Positions 742 to 61,992 are shown, counted from the first letter of the stretch. The stretch is DNA of 64,000 nt from an uncultured bacterium (GCA_963825135.1 CAWGRW010000010.1:128001-192000); one strand, 5' to 3'. Notes: a model not told the origin generated them from the letters alone. Program-made: numbers and translations.

Positions 742-866
742 CCCGACATTACAGAATTTGCGTTAAGAAAATCGATTGTACGAGCGTTAAGAATCTTACG
801 CGGGGTGGGGTTGAATTGGAAGATTTAGCGAGTACATGAGATTTTTAGCAAATTATGTAGTCGGAT
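742..866 (+). repeat. Element A hairpin repeat, copy 1 (class A)
   Basis: cccgacattacagaatttgcg...aattatgtagtcggat, followed by hairpin cttctttgt-atccag-acaaagaag. Confidence 0.95.
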
Positions 867-1264
867 GATTTTTGCTTCTTTGTATCCAGACAAAGAAGAA
901 AATAATATTGTCTTTGCTTTTCATAATCCAAACTACGTGTGTGATTTTTGCTTCTTTTCATCAAGGAAAAGAAGGATAAAAAAAACAGCCTTTCACCTTT
1001 CCTTTGTCTTTTCATTATCTTTTCATAGACCACTTTAGGTGCACGGTGTTTTCATAATCCACACTACGTGTGTCTTTTCATCGAGGAAGAGAAGAAATAA
1101 TATTCGCCATTTCTATGCCTTTATGAAATTGCAGCGCCCAGTCGCAACCCGTTAATCCACTGTCCCCCCGCTATCTTTTTCCCCCTCATGTGTTATATAA
1201 ATTCCCTTGCGCGGGCTGCGGATAAACGGGCTCGCGAATCAAACCGGCACTCTGCGGGGGACTG

Positions 1265-2623
1265 ATGGCACTCCTATCGAGGATTAGCAGGCGGCTCGAC
1301 AACCCGGCCGAGGACATCTCAGCCGGAAGCGGCGCTATCGGGTTCCTGGGCGCGTTCTCCATCGGCATCGGCGGCATAGTCGGCGGCGGGATATTCGCCA
1401 CTCTAGGCCTCGCCACGGTGGAGTCCAGGGGCGCGACGTTCCTCTCGTTCCTCATCGGCGGCATAGTCGCGCTTCTCACCGCGTACTCCTACGTAAAACT
1501 CTCCCTCGCCTACCCTAGCAAGGGCGGCACGGTCACCTTCCTTAACAAGGCGTTCGGCCCCGGGTTCGTCACGGGCTCGCTCAATACACTCCTCGTCATG
1601 AGCTACGTCGTGCTCCTCTCGGTCTACGCTTACGCATTCGCCAATTACGCGGCAGCCACGTTCTTCCCCCACGGCGAATACGCCCGCTGGCACAGGGTGC
1701 TCGTCTCGGCGGTCGTGGTCGCGCTCGCTCTGGTGAATTTCGCCGGACCCGCGCTCGTCGAAAGGTCTGAGGGGTTCTTCAACCTTAGCAAGCTCCTCAT
1801 ACTCTTCGTCTTCGTGGTGCTCGGTCTCCAGGGAAGCGGACTCACGTTCGAGCGCATGGCGCCCTCGGAATGGGTCCCGGCCCCGGAAATCGTTGCGGCC
1901 GGAATGCTGGTATTCCTGAGCTACGAGGGGTTCGAGCTCATCGCGAACGTCTCCGACCAGGTGAGGGACAGGGAGAGGAACCTGCCGCTCGCCTACTACG
2001 GCTCGGTCGCGACGGCGCTCGTGTTCTATGTCCTGATAATAGTCGTAGTGCTCGGACACATGAGCTTCAGCGCGGTCGCGGACTCCAGCAATTACACGCT
2101 CTCGGCGGCGGCCGAGCTGTTCATGGGGAGATCCGGGTTCGTGCTCCTCGCGATAGGGGCCATACTGGCGACCGCGTCCGCCATTAACGCCGGGCTATTC
2201 GGCGCGGCGAAGCTGCCGCTTATGCTCGCCAGGGTGAACGAGGCCCCGCCCATATACCTCCGCGAGTACAGGGGCAGGCATCCCGCGGGACTCGTCGTCA
2301 TCTCGATACTCGTCCTCCTGATAGTGAACTTCCTCGACCTCCACTCCCTCTCGGCCGCGGCGAGCACGGGGTTCATCGTCATATTCCTCACGGTCAATCT
2401 GGCGAACGCCAGGCTCGCCCGGGTGACGGGCGGCAGCAGGCGTGTATCGCTCATAGCCGCCGCGGTGTGTTTCGTCGCACTCGCGGTAATGATCGCGCAG
2501 ACGGCCTGGACCCCGGCCAACAGGAAGGACCTCTGGTTCATCGGCGGCCTCATGGTCCTCCCGCTAATCTACCAGACCGTATACCGCGGCGTCGGATACC
2601 TCCGCAGAACTCACGGCGGGTGA
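1265..2623 (+). CDS. APC-family amino acid permease
   Basis: 452 aa, many TM segments, GGIVGGGIF motif in TM1, YEGFE in TM6. Confidence 0.9.
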   Translation: MALLSRISRRLDNPAEDISAGSGAIGFLGAFSIGIGGIVGGGIFATLGLATVESRGATFLSFLIGGIVALLTAYSYVKLSLAYPSKGGTVTFLNKAFGPGFVTGSLNTLLVMSYVVLLSVYAYAFANYAAATFFPHGEYARWHRVLVSAVVVALALVNFAGPALVERSEGFFNLSKLLILFVFVVLGLQGSGLTFERMAPSEWVPAPEIVAAGMLVFLSYEGFELIANVSDQVRDRERNLPLAYYGSVATALVFYVLIIVVVLGHMSFSAVADSSNYTLSAAAELFMGRSGFVLLAIGAILATASAINAGLFGAAKLPLMLARVNEAPPIYLREYRGRHPAGLVVISILVLLIVNFLDLHSLSAAASTGFIVIFLTVNLANARLARVTGGSRRVSLIAAAVCFVALAVMIAQTAWTPANRKDLWFIGGLMVLPLIYQTVYRGVGYLRRTHGG

Positions 2624-2750
2624 GCACCCGCGGGCATACGATCTCCAACATCCCCCCTCAGCTCAACCCAACCCGTTCGTCCTGAGCGCACACGAAGTGT
2701 GCTGTCGAAGGGTTTCTTCCTTTCAATTTCCCCCTTAGAAAAGAGGGGAG

Positions 2751-2837
2751 ACAAATCCGAACGTGTGAGGAATTGGTTGGAGTTTGGTGATAGCAAAGAA
2801 GTCGCTTAATTGAAGCGGCAAATGTTATTAAAACCAA
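2751..2837 (+). mobile_element. Element X insertion in a ccccctt..aaggggga REP
   Basis: ac-aaatcc-gaacgtgtga-ggaatt-gg; flanks rejoin to the empty REP seen at ~15300. Confidence 0.7.
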
Positions 2838-2866
2838 ATTAAGGGGGATTTAGTTTTTTCTTCTTT

Positions 2867-3023
2867 CCCGACATTACAGAATTTGCGTCAAGCAAAATCG
2901 AGTTGTACGAGCGTTATGAAGTAGCGCAGCGCAATCTCGTCTTTCTGCAGACGTCGAGATTGTGGGGTTGAATTGGAAGATTTAGCGAGTACATGAGATT
3001 TTTAGCAAATTATGTAGTCGGAT
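2867..3023 (+). repeat. Element A copy 2 (loop region altered by a REP-like hairpin)
   Basis: Both arms present, internal caatctcg...cgagattg. Confidence 0.9.
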
Positions 3024-3307
3024 GATTTTTGCTTCTTTTCATCAAGGAAAAGAAGGATAAAAAAACGTCCTTTCACTTTTCATAGACCACTTTAGCGCAC
3101 GGTGTTTTCATCAACACGTGTGTCTTTTCTTTGCCTTTTCTTTCCGAAATCGAGAAGCCCGGACTCCATCCTCGAACCCATACATCGAGCGCCCGCAAAA
3201 AAAAACTCCCCGTCCCGCCGTTTCCGGCGGAGCGGGGAGCGCTCTTTTCAAAATAAATCAATCAGCTATTCACGGGCGGTATCCGCCCGCGCCCTGCGAG
3301 TCAACCC

Positions 3308-3826
3308 TTACTGCCCCTGTATGCAGTACGCGCGCACTTCGACCATGAGACAGTTGTCGGGAGACCCCGCGCCTTCCTTCCTGAAAACGGAGACCTTCCA
3401 TCCGTTCCATCCGCTCGGGTTCATGTTGTCGGCTACGCTCGATGTTACCCTCACCTCTTTCATGTCTATGGTCGAGTCCTCGGGCATGACCGTATAACCG
3501 CCGCCTATCGCGAAGGACCCGGCCGGACAGGTCGCCCTGAAATCGAGCGCCCTTCCCGCGAGCATGCTCACCTGCTGGCTCTCGGACACTTCCGACACAG
3601 AAACGCCGCTCGCCTTCACGGTCTCCACGTTGACGACCATGGGCTGGCACTTCTTCGAGCAGGAGATACCCTCCTGCGACGAGCACGGCGAAGCCGGGGC
3701 CGGAGCGACGGGTGCGGGCTGCGGATAAACGGGCTGCGCGAAAACGCTCCCCGTCCCGATCGCCAGTAAAAACGCGCCGAAAATCGCCCCAACGATTAAT
3801 TCGTTCAATGTTCTGCTGCTCTCCAT
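3308..3826 (-). CDS. Secreted Cys-containing hypothetical protein
   Basis: Signal peptide, ATCPAG...GGGY and AYC motifs, GGAGG RBS. Confidence 0.7.
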   Translation of the reverse strand: MESSRTLNELIVGAIFGAFLLAIGTGSVFAQPVYPQPAPVAPAPASPCSSQEGISCSKKCQPMVVNVETVKASGVSVSEVSESQQVSMLAGRALDFRATCPAGSFAIGGGYTVMPEDSTIDMKEVRVTSSVADNMNPSGWNGWKVSVFRKEGAGSPDNCLMVEVRAYCIQGQ

Positions 3827-4213
3827 GATTTAATTCCTCCCTTGAATGGATTTGATAACTCCCCTTGCTCGCACGATATTACTATATTATCCGGCGCGAT
3901 TCAACACTCCCCCGATAATCCCCTCCGCCCCCTGTTTTACCGCTCGCGGGCGCAGTAATTTTATATCTCAATACAGTATATCGAGTATATATTTACTGCC
4001 CGCGGCGCCGCGAGCGTCGAGCGGCCGCCGCCAAATAAAAAGGCCCCTTCCCCCGAAACGGGGGAAGAGGCCCAATTAATCTTTTTCCGGTCACCCTGAA
4101 CCGGTTTCAGGGTCTCTTTTTTATTCCGTCATTGCGAGCGAAGCGCGGCAATCTCATCTTTTCCTTTCTTAAACCCGTTCGCCCTGAGCTCGTCGAAGGG
4201 TCGAAGGATGTGT

Positions 4214-4774
4214 TTAAACACCCGCCGCAGATCTCTTCCGTCTCACCGCGAAGAACACGCCGATCAGACCAAGCCCGGCCGCAGCCGAGATCGTCCCCCA
4301 CTCGGAGAGCGTCGGTATCTTGTCCGCGGATATCCTGTTAACGAAGACGCACCCGGCTCCGGAAATTTGTCCGCTCGGCTCGACGCAATGGAAAGTTACG
4401 CTGTCCTCGGTCTTCTCAATATCGACGCCGACCCCCTCGAAACACCCAATCTCCTCAATCGTCCACCCTTCCTGCGGAAGCTCCGTGAAGCTTACAGTGC
4501 CCCCGGCGCCTACGAACACGAAATCGGGCGGAGACACTTGATTCGACGACACAGTGATTTCGGTTTCGACCCCGTTCACATTCTTGATGAATTCAAATGG
4601 TATCTCGGACTCAGTCTGGGGTATCTCTTTAAAAATGAAAAATCCGCAATCACCGTCCGGGATGGATGGAGCCCCCGCCTGCGCGGTCATGCCCGTAAAA
4701 CCGGAAAGCACCAAAGATAAAAGAAATAGACGTATAGCTCGTGTAACCATGGTCATCCTCCTACGGATATTCAC
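4214..4774 (-). CDS. IPTL-CTERM surface protein
   Basis: Signal peptide; C-terminal IPTLSEWG + TM helix + RRKR. Confidence 0.9.
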   Translation of the reverse strand: MNIRRRMTMVTRAIRLFLLSLVLSGFTGMTAQAGAPSIPDGDCGFFIFKEIPQTESEIPFEFIKNVNGVETEITVSSNQVSPPDFVFVGAGGTVSFTELPQEGWTIEEIGCFEGVGVDIEKTEDSVTFHCVEPSGQISGAGCVFVNRISADKIPTLSEWGTISAAAGLGLIGVFFAVRRKRSAAGV

Positions 4775-4899
4775 TGAGCTTATTGTACAACTTTATATGA
4801 ATTTTAACAATAGTTATAGAAGATACAGAGCCGCTTCGAGGTATACGCGAATCCCGGTCCCCCGGCCGCGCTTTCGCCTTCCGTTCGGGCGCGTGTATA

Positions 4900-5544
4900 A
4901 TGTCCCGGATGCGAAGCGCGTTCATATCTGCGGCCCTCGTTCTCGCTGCATTCGTCCTCACCGCCTCGGGCGGAGAACCCGCGGCGCGCCCGTCGGTTTC
5001 CCTCCTCCCCGGCTCCGATACGCCCCGGACGACGCAGTGCCCCGACGGCGCGGCGTATGTCTATAAGGGATATACTATATATGTAACGCAGAGCGCGGAG
5101 TCCCCCGGGCAAGGCATATCCGTCTACGAACCCCCGTCCCCTCCCGCCGATCCGTGCGGCGAGGGCAAGGGCGGCAGGTACTTCTCCATCCCGGCGGGCG
5201 AGTCGGGAGGGACGAACTTCTTCGCGGGCGTCTCGGGAGACTACCTCTTCATAGACCAGGGCACGGGTCCTTCTTTCCGGACGATCAGCATATTCGATAT
5301 GAAGGAGAAGACCTTCCCGCTCCTGGAGATCCGCTACTCGGACGCGAAGATAGAGAACGGAGCGCTGACGTATTACGAATCGAGGGACGAGGTCTCGGGC
5401 GTTCTGGCGAAGATACCCTGCCCGCAGGCGTCCGAATGGAAGAAACAGGGGCTCGATGTCGTATATGAGGAGAAAATGTCGTTCGACCTCAAAACGGGAA
5501 GGGAAATCTCGCTCCGCCAGTTCCGCTGCTCCCCCGCGCAGTAA
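4900..5544 (+). CDS. Secreted hypothetical protein, paralog of 24490..25155
   Basis: Signal peptide; shared GG.N.F.G..G.YLFID and IPCP.A..W.K.G motifs. Confidence 0.8.
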   Translation: MSRMRSAFISAALVLAAFVLTASGGEPAARPSVSLLPGSDTPRTTQCPDGAAYVYKGYTIYVTQSAESPGQGISVYEPPSPPADPCGEGKGGRYFSIPAGESGGTNFFAGVSGDYLFIDQGTGPSFRTISIFDMKEKTFPLLEIRYSDAKIENGALTYYESRDEVSGVLAKIPCPQASEWKKQGLDVVYEEKMSFDLKTGREISLRQFRCSPAQ

Positions 5545-5671
5545 CGCGCACGCTCAGCGTGTTCTACGATCCCTTCCAACTCCGCCGCCATTATCGATAA
5601 CCCAAGCCAAACCCGTTCGTGCTGAGCTAGTCGAAGCGTGTGAACTTATTTCCCTCCCCCCATGAGGGGGA

Positions 5672-5756
5672 ACGGATGCGAGCGTGCAAGCATTCGGTCG
5701 CCCTCCGCAAAACGCAAGCAAGCTACTGTGCCATGGGAAGGACATACTATATACAA
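5672..5756 (+). mobile_element. Element X insertion joining halves of two different REP families
   Basis: ac-ggatgc-gagcgtgcaa-gcattc-gg; left flank ccctcccc..gggga, right flank ctgcatagcagcgcggcaatctc. Confidence 0.7.
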
Positions 5757-5980
5757 ATCTGCATAGCAGCGCGGCAATCTCGTCTGTTCCTTTAATTCCC
5801 TCTCCCTCGCGGGGGAGAGGGACAGGGTGAGGGGGTACTTTATTATTCTTTTCCTTTCCCGACATTACAGAATTTGCGGCGGGCACACACAATGTGTGCT
5901 TTATGATCCTTCCGAAACTCTTACGCTCAAACCAGCAACGTAGCCAAACCCATTCGTGCTGAGCTTGTCGAAGCACGTTA

Positions 5981-6184
5981 CCGACATTACAGAATTTGTG
6001 TTAAGAAAATCGATTGTACGAGCGTTAAAAATCTTCCACGGGACGAATGCAAGCGCGCGCGCATTCGGACACCCTCTCCTATCCGCGCGACGTTAGTTAG
6101 CCACGGACATCGCTAAACTATCGCTCCGATGGGGCAGAATTGGAAGATTTAGCGAGTACATGAGATTTTTAGCAAATTATGTAG
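5981..6184 (+). repeat. Element A copy 3 with element X (6043-6128) in its apical loop
   Basis: Arms conserved; 86-nt insertion ac-gaatgc-aagcgcgcgc-gcattc-gg. Confidence 0.9.
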
Positions 6185-6378
6185 AGTCTTTTCGGAAACC
6201 ACACTACGTGTGTGATTTTTGCTTCTTTTCATCAAGGAAAAGAAGGATAAAAATAAAGCCTTTCACCTTTCTTTTGTCTTTCCGAAAGTTCACACTATGT
6301 GTGTGTCGCGGCTGGAAGCCGCTCCTACAGAGTTTGTCACTGCCAGCAGCGCGAAAAATCTATCTTTTGCCTTTCCTT

Positions 6379-6504
6379 CCCGACATTACAGAATTTGCGT
6401 TAAGAAAATCGATTGTACGAGCGTTAAGAATCTTCCACGGGGTGGGGTTGAATTGGAAGATTTAGCGAGTACATGAGATTTTTAGCGTAATTCTGTAGTC
6501 GGAT
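6379..6504 (+). repeat. Element A copy 4
   Basis: Matches consensus. Confidence 0.95.
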
Positions 6505-6698
6505 GATTTTTGCTTCTTTTCATCAAGGAAAAGAAGGATAAAAATAAGGCCTTTCACCTTTCTTTGCCTTTTCTTTTCGAATGATCACGCTATCTATGTT
6601 CATCAAGGAAAAGAAGGATAAAAAAACAGCCTTTCACCTTTCTTTCGTCTTTCCGTAAGGCGCATTGAAAACGCTGCAATCCCGTCCTGCTTCCCCCC

Positions 6699-7310
6699 TC
6701 ACCTGTAAAGCATAATGGCCGGCGGGACCTTGTTGCTCACGGGATCTATGGTCCGGAGATACGCGTAGATGGATATCAGGTCCGAGTCGGGAAGCTCCGC
6801 GAGCTCCTGCCACGGCATCGGATAGAGGAGCCTCCTGCCGAGCCCCTTGTGCATCCCCTGCCTCATGGTCGCGACGAACTGCGCCTCGGACCACGCACCC
6901 GTGCCGGTCTCGATATCGGGCGTAAGGTTGGCGGAGAATACGAGCGTGTCGTTTGACGCCCATACCGTATTGTCGAGGTTGTCGAGGAACTCCATGAATT
7001 CGTTCGACGTTACGACCATGTCCCCCACGTCGGGTATCTTCTCGTCCTGCGGATGGCCGGACAGGAGCCTCTGCGGATTAGGCATGGGCTTGCCGTCGGG
7101 GCCCTTCAACTCAGGGGTGTGGCAGTAGTTGCACTTCCACTCGTTCACGAGCTCCACCCCCCGCGTGACCTGAGCGGCGGTATAAGATGCCGCGGGGACG
7201 GGAACGGCAGCCTGCTGTGGCGCGTTCTTATTGCACGCGGATACAAGCGCCGCGGACACGACAAGCGCCGCGGCCAGGAATAGTCCGAGTTTCATGTCGA
7301 TTCTTTTCAT
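6699..7310 (-). CDS. c-type cytochrome lipoprotein
   Basis: Lipobox-like VSAC, CNYCH heme motif, NLTPD..TG.G.W and PMPW motifs; start set at MKRIDMK after GGAGG. Confidence 0.85.
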   Translation of the reverse strand: MKRIDMKLGLFLAAALVVSAALVSACNKNAPQQAAVPVPAASYTAAQVTRGVELVNEWKCNYCHTPELKGPDGKPMPNPQRLLSGHPQDEKIPDVGDMVVTSNEFMEFLDNLDNTVWASNDTLVFSANLTPDIETGTGAWSEAQFVATMRQGMHKGLGRRLLYPMPWQELAELPDSDLISIYAYLRTIDPVSNKVPPAIMLYR

Positions 7311-7605
7311 CTTTGTGACCTCCTGAAAATCACTTTTAATTATGCCGGATTTTTCGGAATTTACTATCGCACACGGACACATAGTGTCATTTTACGGTTC
7401 TTCCGAATCTCCTCCGCCAAACCCGGCAGCCGCGGCAATTTCGTATGTCGGCGAAATAAATGAAACCCGTCCGTCCCGGGCCTGCCGGAGGGTCGAAGGA
7501 TTGAACGGGCGATGTCCCGCTTGGCGGGACCGCCCGTTCGCGCTTTATGTTATTCCCCCCCTCATGTCGCGGGGAGGGGCCGCGGCGCATTAAAAACCGG
7601 TTCCG

Positions 7606-9048
7606 TCACTGCGGGGCATCGCCGGCGGGGGCGTTTCCCTCCGCGTTCCACCAGCCGCCTCCGAGCGCGACGTAGAAAGCAACCGTGTCCTGGAGCCGCT
7701 GCGCTACGGCCTGTATGTAACTGATCCTGGTCTGATAGTACTGATAGTTGGCTATAAGTACCTGCAGATAATCGACGATGCCCGCCTGGTAATTCGCCTG
7801 TATCAGCCTGAGGGCCTCGTCAGCCTGCCGCATCGCCTCCGATTGCGCCTTAAGTATCTCCGCGTCGTGCTCGAGCGCACGGAGCGCATCGGCGACCTGA
7901 GCGAACGCGCCGAGCACGGTCTCACGGTAATCGGCCAGGGATTGATTGTAGCCCTCTATCGCCGCGCGCCGCTGGTACCAGAGCGTGCCGCCGTGAAAGA
8001 TCGGAGCCAGGATACCCGCGCCTATGCTCCAGAAGCTGACCGCGTTTTTGGAGAGGTTTTCAAACGTAGTGCTGTTCACGCCGTAATCGCCGCTCAAGGT
8101 GAAGTTGGGGAACAATGCCGCCGTGGCGACCCCGATCTCCGCGCTTGCGCTATGCAGCCGGGATTCCGAGGCGAGTATATCGGGACGCTGCCTGACGAGG
8201 TCGGAAGGGAGCGACAGGGGCAGGTCCGCGGGCAGCGCGAGGTCGGCTAATTCCACGTCGGGCGGGCTCCACTCGGCGGGCGTCCGCCCGGACAGCGCGG
8301 CGAGCAAATGCTCGGTCTGGCTGAGCTGCTGCTTGAGTATGGGGATGTTCGCTTCCGTCGCGGAGAGCTGGCTCTGCAGGCTGAGCACGTTCGAGTAGGG
8401 GATTATGCCGGCCTGCGCCTGCGCCTCGGCGATCCCGACCTGCTCCTTCTCGTTATCGATCGTCTGCTCCGTCGCCTTTATCTGCTCGCGGTAGGCCGCC
8501 TGGGCGATAACGGCGTTGACTATATTCCCGGAAAGAGTGAGGTATGCGCCCGTGACCGTATAGCGCTCGACGTCCACCTGCGCCTGCAGGCTCTCGACCG
8601 CCCGGCGCTCCCCGCCGAAAACGTCGAGCGCGTAATTGACGGTCCCGGCCAGGGTATAGATATTGAATATGCTCGACGCGGGGTTCCCGCTGAAGCTCAC
8701 GGGGGAAGACTTCAGACGCGAGACGCCGAGAGTCGCATCGGCCTGCGGAAAGAAAACGCCGTAGCCCGCGCGCAGGTTATCCTGGCTCTGACGCAGGCTC
8801 GCCTCGGCCGCCTGGAGGGTCTGGTTATTCGCGAAGGCCTCTTTCATCACGCCGTCCAGCTTCGCGGAATTGAAAAGACGCCACCAGTCGGCGTTGAGCT
8901 TGACGCCCTCGTCGAACCGCTGAGCCCGCCCTTCGGCGGTGATCGTCGCCGAAGGCTGCTCGCCGCTCGTATAGCGGTCCACGGGAGGCGCCTCGGGCTC
9001 TTTGAAATTCGGCCCGACAGCGCAGCCCGCCATGTAGAGCGGATACAT
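7606..9048 (-). CDS. Outer membrane efflux lipoprotein (NodT/TolC family); start uncertain
   Basis: AGCAVGP lipobox, WW..F, L.RQRPDI..AE, ALGGGW C-terminus. Confidence 0.92.
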   Translation of the reverse strand: MYPLYMAGCAVGPNFKEPEAPPVDRYTSGEQPSATITAEGRAQRFDEGVKLNADWWRLFNSAKLDGVMKEAFANNQTLQAAEASLRQSQDNLRAGYGVFFPQADATLGVSRLKSSPVSFSGNPASSIFNIYTLAGTVNYALDVFGGERRAVESLQAQVDVERYTVTGAYLTLSGNIVNAVIAQAAYREQIKATEQTIDNEKEQVGIAEAQAQAGIIPYSNVLSLQSQLSATEANIPILKQQLSQTEHLLAALSGRTPAEWSPPDVELADLALPADLPLSLPSDLVRQRPDILASESRLHSASAEIGVATAALFPNFTLSGDYGVNSTTFENLSKNAVSFWSIGAGILAPIFHGGTLWYQRRAAIEGYNQSLADYRETVLGAFAQVADALRALEHDAEILKAQSEAMRQADEALRLIQANYQAGIVDYLQVLIANYQYYQTRISYIQAVAQRLQDTVAFYVALGGGWWNAEGNAPAGDAPQ

Positions 9049-9193
9049 CAGGCACAGCAGCGCCGACGCCCGCCATATAAAGCTCCCCCGCCGGTTATTG
9101 CGAATCTTATTCCCCCCGCAGCTTCGTCCCCGTGCAGTTTCCGTTTAGAGAGCATAATTTATCCGGCACATCCCCCGAAAATACCGGGCGCTG

Positions 9194-10294
9194 TTATTTG
9201 CCTCCCGTTTCGGGCTCCTCTATATAAACGTCGACGAGCTGCCCGGTATAGAGTTCCACATTCTTGGGCTTCTCGAACCTGAATATCACAGGCAGGACCC
9301 TCACGTCCACCCTTTCCGTCCTCTGGTTCGACAGCTCGATCTTGGGCGTCACGTAAGGCTGGACGCGCACGAATTCGAGCGGGATGCTGATATCCGTCCC
9401 CCTGATAAACATTTTTGCGTTGATCCGGGGCGGAGGAGGAAGCCTGTTAATGAGTATTTCATCGATGTAACAGCGGACGCTTAATTGGGACTGCGCGCCG
9501 CCCATGACGATTACGGGGTTATACCCGCCCGTGTAGGTGTCGTACGTCCCCTGCGCCGACACATAACTGCCGGGGGCGGCATTGATCGATAGGACCACCC
9601 CGTCGACCGGCGCTTTGAGCGTGTACTTCTCGAGGAGCGCGCTTGAGGCCTCATACGCTTTTGAGAGGGATTCGTACTGGCTCTCCTGGTTTTTTATGTC
9701 GTAAACCCATGCCCCCGCCTTCGTGAGGTCGTACTGTTTCCGGGCGACCCCGAGGTTCGCTTTCGCCACCTTCACCGCGTTCTCGGCGTTGTCGAGAGAA
9801 TATTTACTGACGGATTTCGGGTTCAGCTGATACGATTGCTTCTGTTTGTCCAGCTGGTCCTCCAGGTTCTTGAGGCTGGCGCTCGCGTAGTCGACCTGCG
9901 CTTCCGCGACGTCGAGGGTTTCTTTTCTCGGCTGAGCCTTGAGCTCCTGAAGGAGCGCTTTTGCCGATTCCGCCTGGGCTTCCTGCTGCATGGCGAGCGC
10001 TTTCTGGACCGAGTCGTCCATCATGAGCAGCGGTGTCCCCCGGCTGACGGCCTGCCCTTCGGCGACCGGGATCTTCACGACCGTCCCCGGCACCTCTGGG
10101 TATATGTTTACGTTCTCTCCGCTTTCCTGGTAGCTCTCGATTATGCCGCTCGCATAAATCCCTTTCCCGTACGGGTTCGATGCCGGGCTGAATACCGGCG
10201 GCAGCGCCTTTTTCTCCCTGCCGTGGATGTACGCGGTCACGAGTCCGGCCAATATCCCCAGGATCGCAAGCGCGAAAATAATCTTAGTCCTCAC
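9194..10294 (-). CDS. HlyD-family membrane fusion protein
   Basis: N-terminal TM, lipoyl-like halves, coiled coil, KAPVDG, ERVDVRVL. Confidence 0.9.
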   Translation of the reverse strand: MRTKIIFALAILGILAGLVTAYIHGREKKALPPVFSPASNPYGKGIYASGIIESYQESGENVNIYPEVPGTVVKIPVAEGQAVSRGTPLLMMDDSVQKALAMQQEAQAESAKALLQELKAQPRKETLDVAEAQVDYASASLKNLEDQLDKQKQSYQLNPKSVSKYSLDNAENAVKVAKANLGVARKQYDLTKAGAWVYDIKNQESQYESLSKAYEASSALLEKYTLKAPVDGVVLSINAAPGSYVSAQGTYDTYTGGYNPVIVMGGAQSQLSVRCYIDEILINRLPPPPRINAKMFIRGTDISIPLEFVRVQPYVTPKIELSNQRTERVDVRVLPVIFRFEKPKNVELYTGQLVDVYIEEPETGGK

Positions 10295-10988
10295 CCTGCC
10301 CTCCGTTCTCGATTCCGATCACCTTTCCGTCCTCCATCCTGATTATTCTATCCGCATATTCCGAAATCCTGCTGTCGTGGGTGACGATCAAAATGCACCG
10401 GCTTTCATCGAGTATGTTTTGCTTTACGAATTCCACAATCTTCCGCCCCGTATCCCCGTCGAGGGAAGCCGTCGGCTCGTCCAGTATCAGGATATCCGGA
10501 CGGCTGACGATCGCCCTCGCGATCGCGACGCGCTGCTGCTCTCCGCCGCTCAGCTTGAACGGGGGCAGGGTCGCCCTGTCCTTGAGTCCGACTATTTCCA
10601 GGTACTGCATGGATAATTTCATCGATTCGTCCCAGTCGTACTTTTTCAGGATCAGCGGAATAGCGACATTCTCCACGGTGGTCAGACGCGGAAAGAGGTG
10701 ATAGTCCTGAAACACGAACCCCACCGTGTTCAATCTGAAATCCGCGATCTCGTCGCTCGTCAGGTTCCAGATTTCCCTGTCCTTTACGCTCACCGCGCCG
10801 GAGTTTGGCCGGAGGATGCCAGAGATCATGCTCAACAGCGTCGTTTTTCCGCTCCCGGAAGGCCCTTCGATGTAGAGCATCTCCCCGAAGTTCGCCTCGA
10901 AGCTCACGCCCCTCACGGCGTAAGTTTTCGTCTCCCCTTCCCCGAACCATTTGACCAGTTCCCTGGCCTCGATTGCGTGATTCGCCAT
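10284..10988 (-). CDS. ABC transporter ATP-binding protein (LolD/DevA-like)
   Basis: Walker A GPSGSGKT, LSGGEQQR, ILDEPT. Confidence 0.95.
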   Translation of the reverse strand: MANHAIEARELVKWFGEGETKTYAVRGVSFEANFGEMLYIEGPSGSGKTTLLSMISGILRPNSGAVSVKDREIWNLTSDEIADFRLNTVGFVFQDYHLFPRLTTVENVAIPLILKKYDWDESMKLSMQYLEIVGLKDRATLPPFKLSGGEQQRVAIARAIVSRPDILILDEPTASLDGDTGRKIVEFVKQNILDESRCILIVTHDSRISEYADRIIRMEDGKVIGIENGGQGED

Positions 10989-10989
10989 G

Positions 10990-12198
10990 TCAGCCTCTGA
11001 AAATGTCGAACGGTTCTATTTTTATTACCTTCCTGACGCCTATGTAACTCGAAAAGCCCGCTATTATGAGCATCATGACAAACGCGCGTCCGAGGTTCGA
11101 GTAGGTGATGATCGATGCGTACGACGGCAGCCTGAGCTTGGCTATCGTAATCAGCAGGGTGCTCGAGCCTATGCCGAGTCCGTAGCCCGCAAGGCTCGTG
11201 AGCGCCGCCTGGAACAGGATCATGTAAATGAGCTCCGACCCCTTTGCGCCTATCGCTTTAAGGGCTCCGAACTTTTCGAGGTTCTCCAGCACGAACGTAT
11301 AAAAGGTTTGCCCGGATATGGACAGGCCGACTATGAAGCTTATTACGGTCATTATCAGTATATTCGTGCCGATTCCGGTTTTGTATTTATAATAAGTCGC
11401 TATCCTTTCTATCAGCTCGTCCTTCGTCTCCGCGCGGTATCCGAGCCTGCCTACCTCTTCCTTGATATGTTTCACCGCGGCCCGGTCCTTCGGCTCGACG
11501 AGTATGTACGAAGTCGTGTATCTCGAGTTAGGCAGATACTGGACGGCCCTCTTGTAAGTCGTATACAGCGTCGGGCTCCCGAATAGTCCGCCGGTAGTGG
11601 CTTTCGCAAGGCCCACGACGACGCCCCTGTGGTCGTTCACCTCGAATACGGTGCCGAGCTCCGGGCTTTCCAGCTTGGCGTATTCCCCGTCCTTGACGAC
11701 GATAAACGCGTTCTCGGCATAGATATCGTCGATGTTGCCCTCTAACAGCTCGGGCCTGCCGAAGAGACTCGAATCGTCGAGACCCAGGATCGTAACGGAC
11801 TGATAGTTGCCGTCCCGGAGCTTCACCAAAGCGCCTCCCGTATATAGCGGTACGGCGTATTTCACCCCGTTTATGCTCCTCACGGCGTCAAGCACGTAAT
11901 CGGGCATCGGGATGCTGTTTAACGGGTTATTTACGGAGGGGTCCATTACCCATATGTCGGCCCCGATGTTGATCATAGTCGAAGACGACCTGTGCAGGAC
12001 GCCCGCGAAGAGCGACGTCATCATATTCATCAAAAAGACGGCGAACGTCATGCCGAGTATAAGCGCGGCGAATTTCCCTTTGTCGTTAACCAGAAGCTTG
12101 AATGCGATTCTCAGGATACCCACGTTCTCAAAAGGGTTAGGTATCCGGAGCCTGCTGCGGAGGGAGCTTATCTTCTTCGAGATACTATATTTATCCAT
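10990..12198 (-). CDS. ABC transporter permease (FtsX/DevC-like)
   Basis: ADIWVMD periplasmic domain, LKAIGA motif, C-terminal TMs. Confidence 0.9.
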   Translation of the reverse strand: MDKYSISKKISSLRSRLRIPNPFENVGILRIAFKLLVNDKGKFAALILGMTFAVFLMNMMTSLFAGVLHRSSSTMINIGADIWVMDPSVNNPLNSIPMPDYVLDAVRSINGVKYAVPLYTGGALVKLRDGNYQSVTILGLDDSSLFGRPELLEGNIDDIYAENAFIVVKDGEYAKLESPELGTVFEVNDHRGVVVGLAKATTGGLFGSPTLYTTYKRAVQYLPNSRYTTSYILVEPKDRAAVKHIKEEVGRLGYRAETKDELIERIATYYKYKTGIGTNILIMTVISFIVGLSISGQTFYTFVLENLEKFGALKAIGAKGSELIYMILFQAALTSLAGYGLGIGSSTLLITIAKLRLPSYASIITYSNLGRAFVMMLIIAGFSSYIGVRKVIKIEPFDIFRG

Positions 12199-12590
12199 GG
12201 CCCTGTATCAATGATACGAATGCGCCAGTCCGTTTCCTTCGCCGTTTCTGTACCCGATATCGCTAAAGTCTACCCTATAACACCCCGGCGATAAGGATAT
12301 TTTGATGCCCGGCACTCTCACCTCAGTCAAGCACGGCGGCGGGTGAGCACCCGCGGGCATATGCTCTCAATCATCTCCTTTCCTGTCATTTCGAGCTGAA
12401 GGCGAGAAATCTATCTTTTGCCTTTTCTTCCCCGACATTACAGAATTTGCGGCACACAATGTGTGCTCATATACGATCCTTCCGAAACTCCTACGCTCAA
12501 ACCAGCAACGTAGCCAAACCCCTTCACCCTGAGCGCACACGAAGTGTGCTGTCGAAGGGTCTTCCTTAATTCCTTCCCCCTGGAGGGGGG

Positions 12591-12752
12591 ACGGCTTCGA
12601 GCATGGGGGTTTCGACCTTACAGCGAGAAACCGGTCGCCCCGGAGAACCTTTGAGCTTGCCCTCAATGAGCATCTACTGAATCAAAGTTGTCGGCGGGTG
12701 AACCTTTACCCGCTTAGGTCATGTGATCCATGCTCTCCGATTTGTCGAGCTG
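12591..12752 (+). mobile_element. Longer (about double-length) element X-like insertion in a REP
   Basis: ac-ggcttc-expanded loop-gaaacc-gg-tcgc inside ccttccccc..gggggg / ggtgaggatggggg. Confidence 0.5.
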
Positions 12753-12807
12753 TGGTGAGGATGGGGGTGTCACCTTAACTCAAATCAATCCAGAAAGTCT
12801 TCTTCTT

Positions 12808-12932
12808 CCCGACATTACAGAATTTGCGTTAAGAAAATCGATTGTACGAGCGTTAAGAATCTTACGCGGGGTGGGGTGGAATCGGAAGATTTAGCGAGTA
12901 CATGAGATTTTTAGCAAATTATGTAGTCGGAT
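12808..12932 (+). repeat. Element A copy 5
   Basis: Matches consensus. Confidence 0.95.
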
Positions 12933-13287
12933 GATTTTTGCTTCTTTTCATCAAGGAAAAGAAGGATAAAAAAATAGCCTTTCACCTTTCTTGTCTTTTC
13001 CTTGTCTTTTCGAAAGACCACACTACGTGTGTGGTTTTTTGTATCAAAATAATATTCTCCGATGGATGACGGAGATGCGGGAGTTTATCACCCCCACCTA
13101 TATCCTCCCCCCTCAAGGGGGAGGAAAATAATACGGATCGCGGCCGGAAGCCGCTCCTACAACTATGAGTGTCATTGCGAGGCTTCGCAGAAGCCGCGGC
13201 AATCTCGTCTTTTTCCTTCCCGGCATTACGGAATTTGCGGCGGGCACGCGCTCCCTGCATACTATATTACCGCAGGAGGTAAGTCCC

Positions 13288-14130
13288 ATGAAATTCGGAA
13301 TTTCCATGTTCCCCACGGATTACGCCATTCACCCGGCGGATCTCGCCCGCGAGGTCGAGAGCCGGGGCTTCGATTCGCTCTGGATGCCGGAGCACACGCA
13401 CATCCCTGTCAGCAGGCTGACCCCCGCGCCCGGAGGCGGCGACCTGCCGAAACACTACTGGCACACGTACGACCTGTTCGTCGCCCTCACTGCGGCGGCC
13501 TCGGCCACGACGCGCCTCCTCATCGCGAGCGGCATCTGCCTCATCATCGAGCGCGACCCCATCATTACGGCTAAGGAAATCGCGAGCCTCGACAGGCTCT
13601 CGGGCGGCCGGTTCATATTCGGCATAGGCGGGGGCTGGAACGCGGAGGAGATGGCGAACCACGGGACGGAATTCAAGAAGCGGTGGCGCATCATGCGCGA
13701 GCGCGTCCTCGCCATGAAAGAGATATGGACGAAGGACGAGGCCGAGTACCACGGGGAATTCGTCAACTTCGATAAAATATGGTCCTATCCGAAACCGCTT
13801 CAGAAACCGCATCCCCCGATACTGATAGGAGGCTCGGGCCCGACGACGTTCGACCGGGTCGTCGAGTACTGCGACGGATGGCTTCCCGCCGGAGTCGATC
13901 CCGAATCCATGCCCGGGAGAATGCAGGAGCTCCGCAGGAAAGCCGAAGAAGCGGGCCGCGCCCCCGGAGATATATCCGTCACCTTCGTGATATACAGCGA
14001 CCCCGACCGGGAAGCCGTGGACGCGCTTGAAAATGCCGGCGTCGAGAGAGCCGTATTCGCCGTAACGCCCGGAGAAAAGGACGCAGTACTCCCCGTTCTG
14101 GACAAATACGTCAAACTCGCGCGCACGTAG
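13288..14130 (+). CDS. LLM-class flavin/F420-dependent oxidoreductase
   Basis: GFDSLWMPEH, LDRLSGGRFIFGIGGGW, PKPLQKPHPPILIGG; start after AGGAGG. Confidence 0.92.
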   Translation: MKFGISMFPTDYAIHPADLAREVESRGFDSLWMPEHTHIPVSRLTPAPGGGDLPKHYWHTYDLFVALTAAASATTRLLIASGICLIIERDPIITAKEIASLDRLSGGRFIFGIGGGWNAEEMANHGTEFKKRWRIMRERVLAMKEIWTKDEAEYHGEFVNFDKIWSYPKPLQKPHPPILIGGSGPTTFDRVVEYCDGWLPAGVDPESMPGRMQELRRKAEEAGRAPGDISVTFVIYSDPDREAVDALENAGVERAVFAVTPGEKDAVLPVLDKYVKLART

Positions 14131-14331
14131 TCAGCCGTCGAAGGGCATATCCCAATCCTGTCATTTCGAGCAGCGCGAGAAATCTATCTTTTGCCTTTTC
14201 TTCCTCGACATTACAGAATTTGCGGCACATAATGTGTGCGCGCATACGATTCTTCCGAAGCTCCTCCGCTCAACCTGGCGTGTCATTGCGAGGCTTCGCA
14301 GAAGCCGCGGCAATCTAGTTTTTCTTCCTCT

Positions 14332-14458
14332 CCCGACATTACAGAATTTGCGTATAAGAAAATCGATTGTACGAGCGTTAAGAATCTTACGTGGGGTGGG
14401 GTTGAATTGGAAGATTTAGCGAGTACATGAGATTTTTAGCACAATTCTGTAGTCGGAT
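14332..14458 (+). repeat. Element A copy 6
   Basis: Matches consensus. Confidence 0.95.
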
Positions 14459-14713
14459 GATTTTTGCTTCTTTTCATCGAGGAAAAGAAGGATAAAAAAA
14501 ATAGCCTTTCACCTTTCTAGTCTTTTCATGATCTTTTCATAGACCACTTTAGGTGCACGGTGTTTTCAGAACCCACACTATGTGCGTTCATTCTTGGGCG
14601 CAGTACCTGCATACGCCTACGATCCTTCCCGACCCCCTCTGCCATTGCCTGCCGAGTTCCCGTCTCAGAAAATTTCGCTTTCTTCCGCGCGCTTACTGGT
14701 TACACTAATAGGT

Positions 14714-15184
14714 ATGAACGGAGCCGTCAATTTAGCGTACGCGGCGCTCGCACTCTTCGTGGCGGCGATCAGCTTCCCGGGGCTCGCCACGGCCAGGGAC
14801 ATCAGGGAGCAGGTGATGAAAGAGACCGTCCTCGACGAGGAGATCAGGGCCTTCTGCGCGCTCAGGTGCGTCGGGAACGAGAGGAAGGGGACGCTCAAGA
14901 GCCTCACCATCGACCCCGTCGGGAAAGGCCTCTACTCCGTGTTCGGGATAGCCGCGTTCAGGAACCGCGAGGTTATGGATAACCCGCTCGACTACGTCGT
15001 CTTCGACCACACCGTTTATATAAGCTCGCGCGGGACTCTCAACTCCGAGACCTGCGTGCTCAAGGTTACGGACGCGAAGGTGGATAACGACTACCACGGC
15101 ATTTTCACGGAGATGCTCCGCTCGGAGTCCGACGTCGTGGGCAAGACCTTCAAAGTCCCCGACTGCAAACGCTTCATCGAATAG
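14714..15184 (+). CDS. Secreted hypothetical protein
   Basis: Signal peptide, host-like codon usage, 4 Cys. Confidence 0.7.
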   Translation: MNGAVNLAYAALALFVAAISFPGLATARDIREQVMKETVLDEEIRAFCALRCVGNERKGTLKSLTIDPVGKGLYSVFGIAAFRNREVMDNPLDYVVFDHTVYISSRGTLNSETCVLKVTDAKVDNDYHGIFTEMLRSESDVVGKTFKVPDCKRFIE

Positions 15185-15457
15185 CACGCAGCACACAATG
15201 TGTGCGCATATACGATTCTTCCGAAACTCTCACGCTCAAACCAGCAACGAAGCCAAACCCGTTCGTGCTGAGCGCGAAGGTGGTCGAAGTCTCTTCCCAA
15301 TCCCCCTCAAAAAAGGGGGATTAAGGGGGATTAGTTTTCTCGTTCCCGACATTACAGAATTTGCGGCGGGTGAGCACCCGCAGGCATACGATCTCAAGCA
15401 TCTCCTTTCCTGTCATTTCGAACGCATGTGAGAAATCTGTCTTTCTTCTTTTTCTTC

Positions 15458-51271: not shown

Positions 51272-51397
51272 CCCGACATTACAGAATTTGCGTTAAGAAA
51301 ACCGATTGTACGAGCGTTAAGAATCTTACGCGGGGTGGGGCGGAATCGGAAGATTTAGCGAGTACATGAGATTTTTAGCACAATTCTGTAGTCGGAT
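51272..51397 (+). repeat. Element A copy 18
   Basis: Matches consensus. Confidence 0.95.
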
Positions 51398-52150: not shown

Positions 52151-52534
52151 AAAATTCGGCCGCGCGCACGCACACGCACGTAGCGCGTTTCTATGATCCT
52201 TCCGAAACTCCTACGCTCAAACCGGCAATCATGGCGTTTTCGTATGTCGGCGGCGACACCGCCCCGTTCACCCCGAGCGCACACGATGCGCGTCGAAGGG
52301 TTTTCCCTTCAATTCGTCCCTTAAAAAAGGGGGATTAGGGGGATTTAGTCTTTTCTTCCCCGACATTACAGAATTTGCGGCACACAATGTGTGCTCATAT
52401 ACCCCTTCCGGATCTCCTCCATATAGCCGGCAACGAAGCCCAACCCGTTCACCCTGAGCGCGTCGAAGGGCACATTATCCGTCATTTCGAGCAGCGCGAG
52501 AAATCTATCTTTTGCCTTTTCTTTTGCCTTTCCC

Positions 52535-52656
52535 CCCGACATTACAGAATTTGCGTTAAGAAAATCGCTTGTTTAAGCGTTAAGAAATCTTTGAGCAGTC
52601 CAATTGAAAGATTTTAGCTTAAACACAAGATTTTTAGCACAATTCTGTAGTCGGAT
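52535..52656 (+). repeat. Element A copy 19 (class B)
   Basis: Inner stem tgtttaagc/gcttaaaca. Confidence 0.92.
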
Positions 52657-52941
52657 GATTTTTGCTTCTTTTCATCAAGGAAAAGAAGGATAAAAAAACA
52701 GCCTTTGTCTTGTCCTTCCTTAGTCTTGTCTTTTCGAATGATCACACTACGTGTGTGTGTCGCGGCTGGAAGCCGCTCCTACAAGTGATTGTAAACGCAG
52801 CATCGCTAAAAAAAAGCCCCTTTCCTCCATCCCGGAAGAAAGGGGCAACTTTGAAGTCACCCTGAACCGGTTTCAGGGTCCCGCTTTTCTTTTCTGTCAT
52901 TCCCGTGAGCTTCCATCGGGAATCTCGCTGTTATTTCCCTT

Positions 52942-57398: not shown

Positions 57399-57586
57399 CC
57401 CGACATTACAGAATTTGCGTCACATTGTTTCCCTCCCCCTTCCCAAGGGGGAGGGTGTGGGTGGGGGTTTACCTTATCAGCCTATCAATCCAGAGAGTCT
57501 TTCTCTTTCCAGGCGTAAAGAAATCTTTGAGCAGTCCAATTGAAAGATTTTAGCTTAAACACAAGATTTTTAGCACAATTCTGTAG
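57399..57586 (+). repeat. Element A copy 20 (class B, interrupted by a REP); degenerate copy also at ~57150-57265
   Basis: Left arm at 57399, right part resumes ~57512. Confidence 0.8.
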
Positions 57587-60058: not shown

Positions 60059-60444
60059 CGCTGTGAAACGCAGCACGGCAAACTCGTCTTTCCTTCCCGA
60101 CATTACACAATTTGCGGCAGGCACACACAATGTGTGTCTCTACGATTCTTCCGTAACTCCTCAGCTCAACCAACAAGCGAAGCCAAACCCGTTCGTGCTG
60201 AGCTTGTCGAAGCACGTTACCGACATTACAGAATTTGCGGCGGGTAAGCACCCGCGGGCATACGATCTCTAACATCCGCCTCAGCTCAACCCAACCCGTT
60301 CACCCTGAGCGCACACGAAGTGTGCTGTCGAAGGGTCCTCCTTAATTCCCTCCCCCTCAATAGGAGGGGGGAGGGTCAAGGGTGGGGGTGTACCTTAATC
60401 ATTCTGTCATTGCGAGCAAAGCGAAGCAATCTCGCCTTTTCTTC

Positions 60445-60564
60445 CCCGACATTACAGAATTTGCGTCAAGAAAATCGCGTGTTTAAGCGTAAAGAAATCT
60501 TTGAGCAGTCCAATTGAAAGATTTTAGCTTAAACACAAGATTTTTAGCAAATTATGTAGTCGGA
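60445..60564 (+). repeat. Element A copy 21 (class B)
   Basis: Matches class B consensus. Confidence 0.92.
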
Positions 60565-60816
60565 ATGATTTTTGCTTCTTTTCATCAAGGAAAAGAAGAG
60601 ATCAATTTCGCCTTTGCCTTTGCTTTTTCTTTGTCTTTTCGAAAGACCACACTACGTGTGTTCATCAAGGAAAAGAAGGATTAATCAAATAGCCTTTCAC
60701 CTTTCTTCGTCATTGCGAGCCCTCCCGTTCGACCATCGGCACGCATCCCCCCTCTTGCGTCCCCCGCCCTTCCGGCACTATAATATCCGCAACACCCCGA
60801 GCGGGAGCGGAGACCC

Positions 60817-61485
60817 ATGAACATCAAATCACTTGCCGTAATCGCCTTATTATTGCTATCCCCGGCGGCCCTGTGCTTCGCGTCGGGCGAAAAGCCCGAC
60901 GTGAGGGACGTGAGGTGGGGCATGTCGAAGGAAGAGGTCATGAAGCACGAAAAGGCCGAGAAAATCAAGGAGACTGACAGCATACTCGTATACTTCATCA
61001 AAGGCGGGCCTACGCGCGAAATTATCCACACGCATCCCGACCTGGATGGGAAATCGATGGAGCTATCCATGGATATCGACGTACCCGACTACAACCTCGT
61101 CTACCTCTTCCCGGACGGCAAGCTCGGCATGGCCATTCTCCATATGGACAACCCCAAGGCGGACGCGAAGGATTATATCGACGAGTTCGACCGCCTGGCG
61201 GACAAGATAACCGATGAGACCGGGAAGGAGCCCGACGGACAGGCGAAATACGCCGAGAACGAGAGCGAGGACACCGTCTACGAGCACCCCGCGGAGATAT
61301 GCACGGGGAGGTACGGTTTAAGGTACATCTGGCCCGCGACAAACGACAGGACTAAAATCATGATCGAGCTCGACGACAGGAAGTCCGCCGACGACAAGTC
61401 CGAATGCACCCTGGCGATATTCTACGAGAGCGTCAAATTCCCCGTCGACCCGGCGTCTTTGGCGAAGATGCACGAAGCATTGTAA
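60817..61485 (+). CDS. Secreted protein, DFR..RWGM family
   Basis: KPDVRDVRWGMSKEEV, FYESVKFPVDP shared with 59360. Confidence 0.8.
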   Translation: MNIKSLAVIALLLLSPAALCFASGEKPDVRDVRWGMSKEEVMKHEKAEKIKETDSILVYFIKGGPTREIIHTHPDLDGKSMELSMDIDVPDYNLVYLFPDGKLGMAILHMDNPKADAKDYIDEFDRLADKITDETGKEPDGQAKYAENESEDTVYEHPAEICTGRYGLRYIWPATNDRTKIMIELDDRKSADDKSECTLAIFYESVKFPVDPASLAKMHEAL

Positions 61486-61639
61486 CGCGCGACACACAGA
61501 CACATAGTGTCATTTTACGATCCTTCCGTGACTCCTACGCTCAAACCAGCAACGAAGCCCAACCCGTTCGTCCTGAGCGCACACGAAGTGTGCTGTCGAA
61601 GGGTCTCTTCCCTTCAATTTCCCCCTTAGAAAAAGGGGA

Positions 61640-61724
61640 ACAATTTCGAACGAGTGAGGAATTGGTCGGAGATGATTAAATGCAAAGGACTTTCTTAATT
61701 GAAGTGACACTTTTGTCAAACCAG
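61640..61724 (+). mobile_element. Element X insertion
   Basis: ac-aatttc-gaacgagtga-ggaatt-gg-tcgg. Confidence 0.75.
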
Positions 61725-61866
61725 ATTAAGGGGGATTTAGTTTTTTCTTTTTCCCCGACATTACAGAATTTACGGCGGGTGAGCACCCGCAGGCATACGA
61801 TCTCAAGCATCTCCTTTCCTGTCATTTCGACCAACATGGAGAAATCTAGTCTTTCTGCCTTTTCTT

Positions 61867-61992
61867 CCCGACATTACAGAATTTGCGTTAAGAAAATCGA
61901 TTGTACGAGCGTTAAGAATCTTACACGGGGTGGGGTGGAATTGGAAGATTTAGCGAGTACATGAGATTTTTAGCACAATTCTGTAGTCGGAT
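61867..61992 (+). repeat. Element A copy 22
   Basis: Matches consensus. Confidence 0.95.

Follow-up and report, generated by a model that had tools for sequence, protein, structure and literature searches.

An apparently undescribed, replication-oriented intergenic hairpin repeat of Candidatus Dadabacteria

Element A and its companion modules in the window

The window analyzed here is a stretch of 64,000 nt from an uncultured bacterium (GCA_963825135.1 CAWGRW010000010.1:128001-192000, hereafter C10:128001-192000), belonging to a genome (G000) of 3.13 Mb in 17 contigs that is 94% complete. It holds blocks of one to about six genes on either strand, with approximately half of the Pfam-supported genes on each strand, and between the blocks recurs element A, a long intergenic hairpin repeat that is the subject of this report. 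The block genes encode an amino-acid permease, a MacAB-TolC operon, a luciferase-like oxidoreductase and an aquaporin/ArsC/ArsR group, as well as a PAS-GAF histidine kinase, hydrolases and small IPTL-CTERM and SpaA-like proteins.

The 21-nt 5' arm of element A, CCCGACATTACAGAATTTGCG, has 39 matches in the window at up to three mismatches, all on the + strand, with 0 expected from 100 shuffles. Complete hairpin units, 118-209 nt long and terminating in AATT(C/A)TGTAGTCGG, are opened by 21 of the 39 arms; the remaining 18 are solo arms, after which other modules come, in most cases a GC palindrome (GCGGGTGAGCACCCGC or GCACACAATGTGTGC) and then (C/T)ATACGAT. A covariance model (CM) built from 45 distinct copies, 17 from the window and 28 from other genomes, finds 21 full-length + copies of about 122 nt scoring 82-148 bits and one partial copy, the matches on the - strand at the same sites being weak (16-38 bits). 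All copies given below lie on the + strand. A type 1 full copy with hairpin B after it is located at 743-864 (142.9 bits), and further full copies are found at 6380-6502 (139.5 bits), 12809-12930 (144.2), 14333-14456 (130.1), 18124-18245 (140.9), 21977-22099 (135.5), 23495-23617 (139.6), 25256-25377 (143), 26216-26337 (148.2), 27568-27690 (139.5), 32617-32739 (141.7), 42485-42606 (139.8), 51273-51395 (131.8) and 61868-61990 (138.4). The apical loop is longer by 35-90 nt in four window copies: the full copy at 2868-3021, with an insert of about 35 nt (82.1 bits); that at 5981-6186, with a nested module of about 87 nt (100 bits); and those at 15459-15649 (107 bits) and 31104-31312 (96.7 bits), each with a nested loop module. 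The 3' end of the copy at 31104-31312 is altered and that at 5981-6186 finishes in ...CTGTAG plus another module in place of TCGG, an ending seen by sequence in three window copies. In subtype 2, found at 45826-45944 (109.2 bits), 52536-52654 (113 bits) and 60446-60563 (116.2 bits), the alignment reveals inner stems changed with compensation. The copy at 57399-57572, recognized by its arm match and sequence, is disrupted, being composed of a 5' arm, a C-rich hairpin module and the 3' two thirds of a subtype-2 copy, and the model matches it partially at 57492-57572 (model positions 24-105, 21.3 bits).

Solo arms were located by the arm search at 613-633, where a GC palindrome module follows, and at 5858-5878, 12431-12451, 14204-14224, 15345-15365, 17994-18014, 21766-21786, 27456-27476, 30980-31000, 32511-32531, 42363-42383, 45617-45637, 60096-60116, 60219-60239 and 61754-61774. 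The solo arm at 13219-13239 has two mismatches and lies 48 nt upstream of the ATG of the luciferase-like gene, while from the one at 52359-52379 a unit of 176 bp extends up to the next arm, and it is this unit that is missing in the variant contig C13.

The hairpin of element A is maintained via compensatory change. In the RNAalifold consensus fold 98.1% of 1800 cells pair, and both sides are altered in nine of the 40 pairs (58 cells), a result equalled by none of 500 column shuffles; with slid partners the maximum is three pairs and five cells. The compensations are confined to the inner helices, the outer 16 pairs being invariant in the alignment. A 20-mer from the 5' arm, matched exactly, and a 9-mer from the 3' arm served to gather the copies from outside the window, and so the lack of variation in columns 1-20 and 124-132 (alignment A1) and in the outer pairs is partly by construction. 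All 45 aligned copies begin with CCGACAT... and end with ...GTAGTCGG. The two sides of the hairpin differ: an AT bulge is present on the 5' side only, a G stands opposite an A in most 3' arms, the internal loop has 4-5 nt on one side vs 1-2 nt on the other, and the length of the apical part ranges between about 16 and about 100 nt. The consensus-structure table contains 68 G-U cells vs four A-C cells, mostly contributed by two pairs, and from this excess one strand is taken to be the folding strand. Folded as RNA, the + strand reaches -38.6 kcal/mol and its complement -32.3 kcal/mol.

Element A does not occur alone. A pyrimidine tract lies on its 5' side and hairpin B on its 3' side, and GC palindromes with CATACGAT after them also accompany it. 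Hairpin B has a 9-bp stem, GCTTCTTTT/AAAAGAAG(G), with a compensated variant GCTTCTTTG/CAAAGAAG. Sequence breakpoints recur after ...TTTGCG and after ...CTGTAG, and one recurrent breakpoint falls immediately after a GTAG within the 3' arm (CTGTAGTCGG). Solo arms, loop inserts and hybrid forms are all present among the copies. Element A is thus the largest module in a mosaic of small co-oriented hairpin modules, similar in build to bacterial interspersed mosaic elements (BIMEs) and neisserial intergenic mosaic elements (NIMEs). The first-pass annotation of the window, which was made from its sequence alone, had anticipated much of this. Its 22 co-oriented + copies correspond to the 21 full copies and the single disrupted one recovered by the covariance model, the stems it named are those of the RNAalifold consensus, the second hairpin that it saw after every copy is hairpin B, found downstream of 22/22, and its description of a conserved, structured and strand-specific repeat is borne out by the model matches and the covariation.

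Distribution and replication polarity

In G000 the array extends well beyond the window. All 92 arms on contig C10 are forward and lie between 69.5 and 222 kb (over 153 kb), the 69 kb ahead of them being free of copies; on contig C9, 21 forward copies fall within the initial 82 kb, and 10 scattered forward and three reverse copies come after them. At least 88 full units are present in the genome, counted among the best 150 of 1164 candidates, which were scored by the model. Element A is also found singly in ordinary intergenic regions, outside arrays. An exact-match scan of one genome per species yielded at least 153 stretches and, among the matches listed, nearly all are in metagenome-assembled genomes titled Candidatus Dadabacteria or Thermodesulfobacteriota. 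When the best 35 candidates per genome were scored with the model, the family turned up, at E up to 1e-6, in 38 of the 101 genomes searched in the order (Candidatus Dadabacteria), among them all nine of the genus. Copy number varies within this genus, from about 165 arm matches in G000 and 198 in G001 to 27 and 8 in two other species, and other genera of the order carry arm variants; the variants of the arm include TTTGCG, TTGGCG and AATTGCG. The small contigs C1, C2, C6, C11 and C13 of G000 are array variants of 90-97% identity with different junction modules, and they are probably strain variants that were co-assembled, and not true paralogs. The arm was also found on four IMG/VR contigs, on one of which (L243, about 3000-5900) it lies 1.6 kb from a large-terminase gene; as this contig is classed as viral, the arm also resides in prophage or phage DNA of these bacteria.

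The Rfam scan of the window gave no matches, and for one junction searched at E up to 1 the sole match was RNAI, with 19.1 bits vs a threshold of 47. Collections of phage and plasmid records contained no match to element A, in keeping with the first-pass remark that it was not recognized as a named family, and no account of it was found in the accessible parts of the Dadabacteria literature on integrons and on repeats. The element A family is therefore apparently an undescribed, lineage-specific intergenic repeat.

The orientation of element A follows replication and is independent of neighboring genes, as observed in four genomes. In the second species of the genus (G010), 11 of the 12 copy-holding 20-kb regions fit the rule that a forward copy lies in negative GC skew and a reverse copy in positive skew, and the majority coding strand does not predict the orientation of the element. 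In G000 the local skew is negative at all eight scattered forward sites and about zero at the lone reverse cluster (C9:2.544-2.548 Mb), which flanks MnmA, a MiaB-like gene and a phosphoesterase and near which no enzyme candidate was found. In G012, a nearly closed genome of another genus, the copies at 2.225-2.251 Mb (six) are reverse and those at 2.320-2.479 Mb (at least 31) forward, and the GC skew turns from positive to strongly negative at about 2.262 Mb. This flip is 1.27 Mb from dnaA on a contig of 2.67 Mb and is therefore taken to be the terminus. In G015, a single contig, 12 of the 13 copies fit the replichores set by dnaA. The G000 array begins just past the point at which the skew of C10 turns negative (55-65 kb), where the genes are orthologous to those at the G012 flip, and in both G012 and G000 the copies are concentrated in the 150-300 kb beside the skew flip. 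The leading strand is usually the G-rich one, and by this rule the better-folding strand of element A is on the C-rich strand, the leading-strand template. With such strict polarity, replichore and terminus can be marked in draft Dadabacteria genomes from sequence alone. A dif site, which the arms might mimic, was sought with an E. coli consensus and a relaxed core pattern, and then through the 28-mers shared between the terminus regions of G000 and G012, from which only coding matches came. Past the flip of G012 lies a stretch of about 50 kb between the oppositely oriented arrays (G012:C1:2262000-2320000, L216-L219), with 36-44% GC and a skew reaching -0.24, which may be a large foreign island at the terminus.

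Turnover of copies, gene blocks and the search for an enzyme

Over short time scales, copies of element A appear and disappear, become nested and give way to others. Twelve lpdA loci were taken, 11 of which show the upstream region. In three loci of other genera this region is a short repeat-free spacer. Element A is missing from two genomes of the same genus, whose modules are of other kinds and include GTAG-type repetitive extragenic palindromes (REPs) as an inverted pair, and it is present in five genomes; in G000, element A, its pyrimidine tract and hairpins B and C are nested inside the inverted GTAG-type REP pair. Two contigs with genes of 95% identity differ at one junction by about 620 bp of modules, including arm-bounded tandem units, and contig C13 is without a 176-bp arm-to-arm unit that the window carries. 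Of the 22 window copies compared at junctions shared in synteny with the second species, only one has its syntenic counterpart as the closest copy, the counterpart often belonging to another subtype, and non-syntenic copies share 0.90-0.98 interior identity while the genes are 70-94% identical. Since syntenic copies are not mutual closest relatives, we infer turnover in which a master sequence is kept. By analogy, this is the behavior of REPINs (REP doublets forming hairpins), whose populations are portrayed in the available parts of two studies as long-lived and vertically inherited, with a conserved master sequence (PMC3116915; 10.1101/2022.05.22.493013). The contigs of four DNA runs that matched window 5001-25000 were only short pieces whose joints had sides of <60 letters between repeat copies; these joints are read as cross-mapping and not as evidence of excision. 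The junction bins had much higher word depth in the same runs.

The array is largely collinear with that of the second species (G001/G010), where it spans three contigs, at 70-94% nucleotide identity, which is not expected for a fast-shuffling cassette store. Three block differences were examined, two of them base by base. The MacAB-TolC block (window 7417-13256) is missing from the second species, the ArsC-ArsR pair occupies another array position there, beside a different arsenite carrier, and a SnoaL gene is relocated between the two species. The junctions also mark a terminus-proximal zone of gene-block exchange between species. The first-pass annotation had suggested comparing strains for gain or loss of blocks exactly at element A, naming breakpoints elsewhere as evidence against its view. 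At the left edge of the MacAB-TolC block element A is missing, the block being bracketed instead by two copies of the palindrome-TACGAT module, and it is likewise missing from the right edge of the ars block; by the standard which that annotation had set for itself, the reading of element A as a recombination site is therefore weakened. Its idea that the element organizes a surface-protein region is not supported, given the mixed gene content and the presence of element A outside the region. Small paralogous genes that encode SpaA-like prealbumin-fold domains or IPTL-CTERM sorting signals form runs at window 18400-21100, 28000-30700 and 44000-47000, and they are the "surface protein" content that was meant.

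The search for an enzyme acting on element A has left no candidate. A Pfam scan of the 132 open reading frames (ORFs) of ≥100 aa in the window contains no recombinase or transposase, as had been stated on first inspection, and there is no recombinase in the 17 kb ahead of the first copy. The integron integrase IntI is marked by an extra domain and normally stands at the array head; no protein of G000 exceeds the 265-bit cut-off of its model TIGR02249, the best reaching 88 bits. Neighboring tyrosine recombinase, HUH, RAYT (REP-associated tyrosine transposase) or IS110 genes, which the first-pass annotation had recommended looking for, were not found by the array, and tyrosine recombinases are present on C9 only, where all eight Phage_integrase matches of G000 are located far from the array. 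The third of three Xer-like tyrosine recombinases was rejected as the enzyme, being present in seven genera without the element and missing from three genera with it. Repeated DNA outside the array was likewise rejected as an active insertion sequence (IS), as it consists of groEL, tuf and decayed IS3 fragments. Classical-looking REPs were noticed at window 13100-13160 and 52760-52790 and upstream of lpdA in L183 and L186, often as inverted pairs, with GTAG ahead of a GC palindrome (GTAGGAGCGGCTTCCAGCCGCGA and its complement). Among such GTAG-type REPs in G010 lies a RAYT-like gene (L233:1441-1905), and a separate, ordinary REP-RAYT system therefore coexists with element A.

Nearest known systems and competing explanations

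Among known repeats, the REP/BIME/REPIN group is the nearest kind to element A by analogy, with the enterobacterial repetitive intergenic consensus (ERIC) and NIMEs as analogues of size and architecture. Element A resembles the former as an intergenic hairpin repeat with tens to hundreds of copies in mosaic clusters of several module types, with a hairpin kept by compensation and a long-lived population with a master sequence, and classical GTAG-type REP pairs are present in the same genomes. However, it is a single hairpin of 118-125 nt, whereas REPs are 20-40 nt long or form an inverted doublet, following the definitions in the part of PMC6006769 that was accessible. It is also strictly one-stranded with respect to replication, with a dense array by the terminus, unlike REPs and REPINs. 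The REPIN-RAYT pairing is a further difference, as no RAYT is found in G000 or in six of the nine genomes of the genus and both of the RAYT-like genes inspected have repeats of other kinds beside them. In REP-RAYT systems the RAYT gene is single-copy with the same repeats at its sides, and a conserved GTAG lying 5' at the hairpin is required for cleavage. ERIC elements, also called intergenic repeat units (IRUs), and the Correia elements or NIMEs are imperfect palindromes of about 120-150 bp located between genes, with internal insertions giving longer forms. NIMEs form mosaics of repeat units between short conserved repeats, and ERIC and Correia elements occur in both orientations and have been read as similar to miniature inverted-repeat transposable elements (MITEs) or as acting at the RNA level. 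Element A is like them in size class, loop inserts, intergenic site and mosaic build, but unlike them its orientation follows the replichore. A MITE derived from a DDE transposon was rejected, the flanks being conserved modules and not target-site duplications and the orientation being uniform per replichore. Moreover, no separated arm pair enclosing a gene was found, 20 of the 177 matches to the 3' arm being orphans and 18 of these chance-like, and a decayed IS3-type fragment is the only trace of an IS. Elements derived from IS200/IS605 are hairpin-dependent, strand-specific and replication-oriented, as is element A, according to the accessible part of PMC6006769; however, they have different subterminal hairpins at their two ends vs one end-to-end hairpin here and use the lagging-strand template, and G000 has no TnpA/TnpB gene.

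We favor, with slightly more than even confidence, the interpretation of element A as a non-autonomous, single-strand, replication-coupled REPIN-type intergenic repeat, the long-hairpin member of a mosaic family. The first-pass annotation had offered a recombination site, a non-autonomous mobile element and a repeated non-coding RNA, and it is the mobile element that fits best, the recombination site having lost ground at the block edges. At the replication fork, element A would fold as single-stranded DNA and in this form be copied or moved, and a trans-acting protein, not a recognizable Y1/HUH enzyme in G000, would read the conserved arms together with the AT bulge and the G/A mismatch. Such reading of the arms would explain why arms and consensus are near-identical between species despite diverging flanking genes. 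As a by-product, the co-oriented junctions may give homology for the gain, loss and shuffling of blocks. There is precedent in the IS200/IS605 and REP enzymes, which act on single-stranded hairpins at the fork (PMC6006769, in the part available).

Several observations weigh against this REPIN-type interpretation. No target site, target duplication or clean empty site is definable, the flanks of element A being themselves repeats. IS110, serine recombinase/resolvase and TnpB have no match in G000, and neither has Y1_Tnp, whose absence from draft genomes such as this one, 94% complete, is not proven. Y1_Tnp is present in five of 33 genomes of the family and in three of nine of the genus (one of them IS200-like), whereas element A is in all nine. 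The repeat bordering the RAYT-like gene within the G012 array is not element A but a different small palindrome, and G000 is IS-poor, with no multi-copy IS except decayed IS3 fragments. The better-folding strand is on the leading-strand template, unlike in IS608, which uses the lagging-strand template. Finally, the enrichment at the terminus and the retention of element A at many syntenic junctions could also mean a host function. In such a role element A would be a polar DNA site of the terminus region, bound by a protein of nucleoid organization, segregation or replication, or as a topological barrier. BIMEs bind gyrase and IHF, and the strict replication orientation in four genomes, the concentration of copies beside the skew flip in G012 and G000 and a consensus that stays near-identical between species with genes of 70-94% identity are all consistent with such a signal. 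We nevertheless regard it as rather unlikely, because copy number ranges from 8 to about 200 in one genus, 63 of the 101 genomes of the order are without the family (E up to 1e-6), several subtypes and many broken, nested and half copies exist, and the content differs between near-identical strains, where more uniformity is expected of a conserved host signal.

The attC sites of integrons deserve attention, since in shape they are close to element A. They are imperfect hairpins of 57-141 bp with unpaired features and a variable apical part, and in big integron arrays the recombinogenic strand is on the leading-strand template (PMC5371416, in the accessible part). Element A has the AT bulge, the G/A mismatch, the internal loop and the variable apical part, a resemblance of shape only. 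If element A were such a site, a recombinase distinct from IntI, perhaps one of the three Xer-like ones, would cut and join the folded strand, and the terminus-proximal array would be a cassette store similar to an integron or to an integrative mobile element exploiting Xer (IMEX). Conserved ends with an interior that varies while the structure is kept, an apical part of a few to about 90 nt, 92 co-oriented arms on one strand over 153 kb, a better-folding strand on the same template as in large chromosomal integrons, the recurring breakpoints after ...TTTGCG and ...CTGTAG and the block differences between species (MacAB-TolC presence, ars and SnoaL positions) would fit this scheme. Yet no protein passes the integron-integrase cut-off, all tyrosine recombinase genes are far from the array, the third Xer-like gene does not co-occur with the element, and the arms lack the inverse core RYYYAAC and the core GTTRRRY, so that neither IntI nor an R/L box consensus is present. 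Block size ranges from one gene to about six, on either strand, two species share a largely collinear array, the MacAB-TolC and ars differences are not bounded by element A at one edge each, and single copies exist outside arrays. The integron-like reading is consequently weakly supported, and we consider it improbable. A similarly improbable variant is that the arms are the recognition or cleavage site of an unrecognized fork-acting single-stranded DNA recombinase or transposase, which would not be a Y1/HUH, IntI, IS110 or TnpB enzyme, the terminus array then being an integrase-less cassette store whose hairpins would be the points of capture and reshuffling of gene blocks.

The tolerance of G-U on the + strand only and its better folding (-38.6 vs -32.3 kcal/mol) would also suit a repeated small RNA or an untranslated-region hairpin that stabilizes or terminates transcripts, as proposed for ERIC and REP, and a solo arm with its palindrome resembles a -35/-10 pair (TTGCGG, 17-18 nt, TATACG), making it a candidate promoter. 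Such a role appears quite unlikely, as the orientation is independent of neighboring genes and follows GC skew, no U-run is present past hairpin B on either strand and Rfam has no match. We give equally little credence to a spread and homogenization of copies by general recombination, gene conversion and replication slippage with no dedicated enzyme, the orientation being uniform because inversions are harmful. The fruitless enzyme searches, the tandem duplications of junction units bounded by the 21-nt arm and the greater similarity of non-syntenic than of syntenic copies argue in its favor, but isolated copies hundreds of kb from others are still replication-polar, the orientation flips with the replichore instead of being uniform per genome, and the family spans families of the order with lineage-specific arm variants.

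Element A represents a well-defined repeat family in a phylum known only from metagenomes, and it accounts for much of the assembly fragmentation, the small contigs of G000 ending in repeats or being array variants. Under the REPIN-type interpretation, a REPIN-like persistence without a recognizable RAYT provides a concrete case for seeking a new enzyme of folded single-stranded DNA.

Two further features of the window may be mentioned. The segment at 37300-42300 has 37-44% GC vs about 54%, a reversed GC skew and genes for an HTH/S24 repressor-like protein and DUF5131, and the second species carries different DNA at this place; it looks like a prophage remnant or foreign island within the array. 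On the - strand at 43050-43902, two overlapping ORFs each encode half of an S-adenosylmethionine (SAM)-methyltransferase domain and are probably one frameshifted gene.

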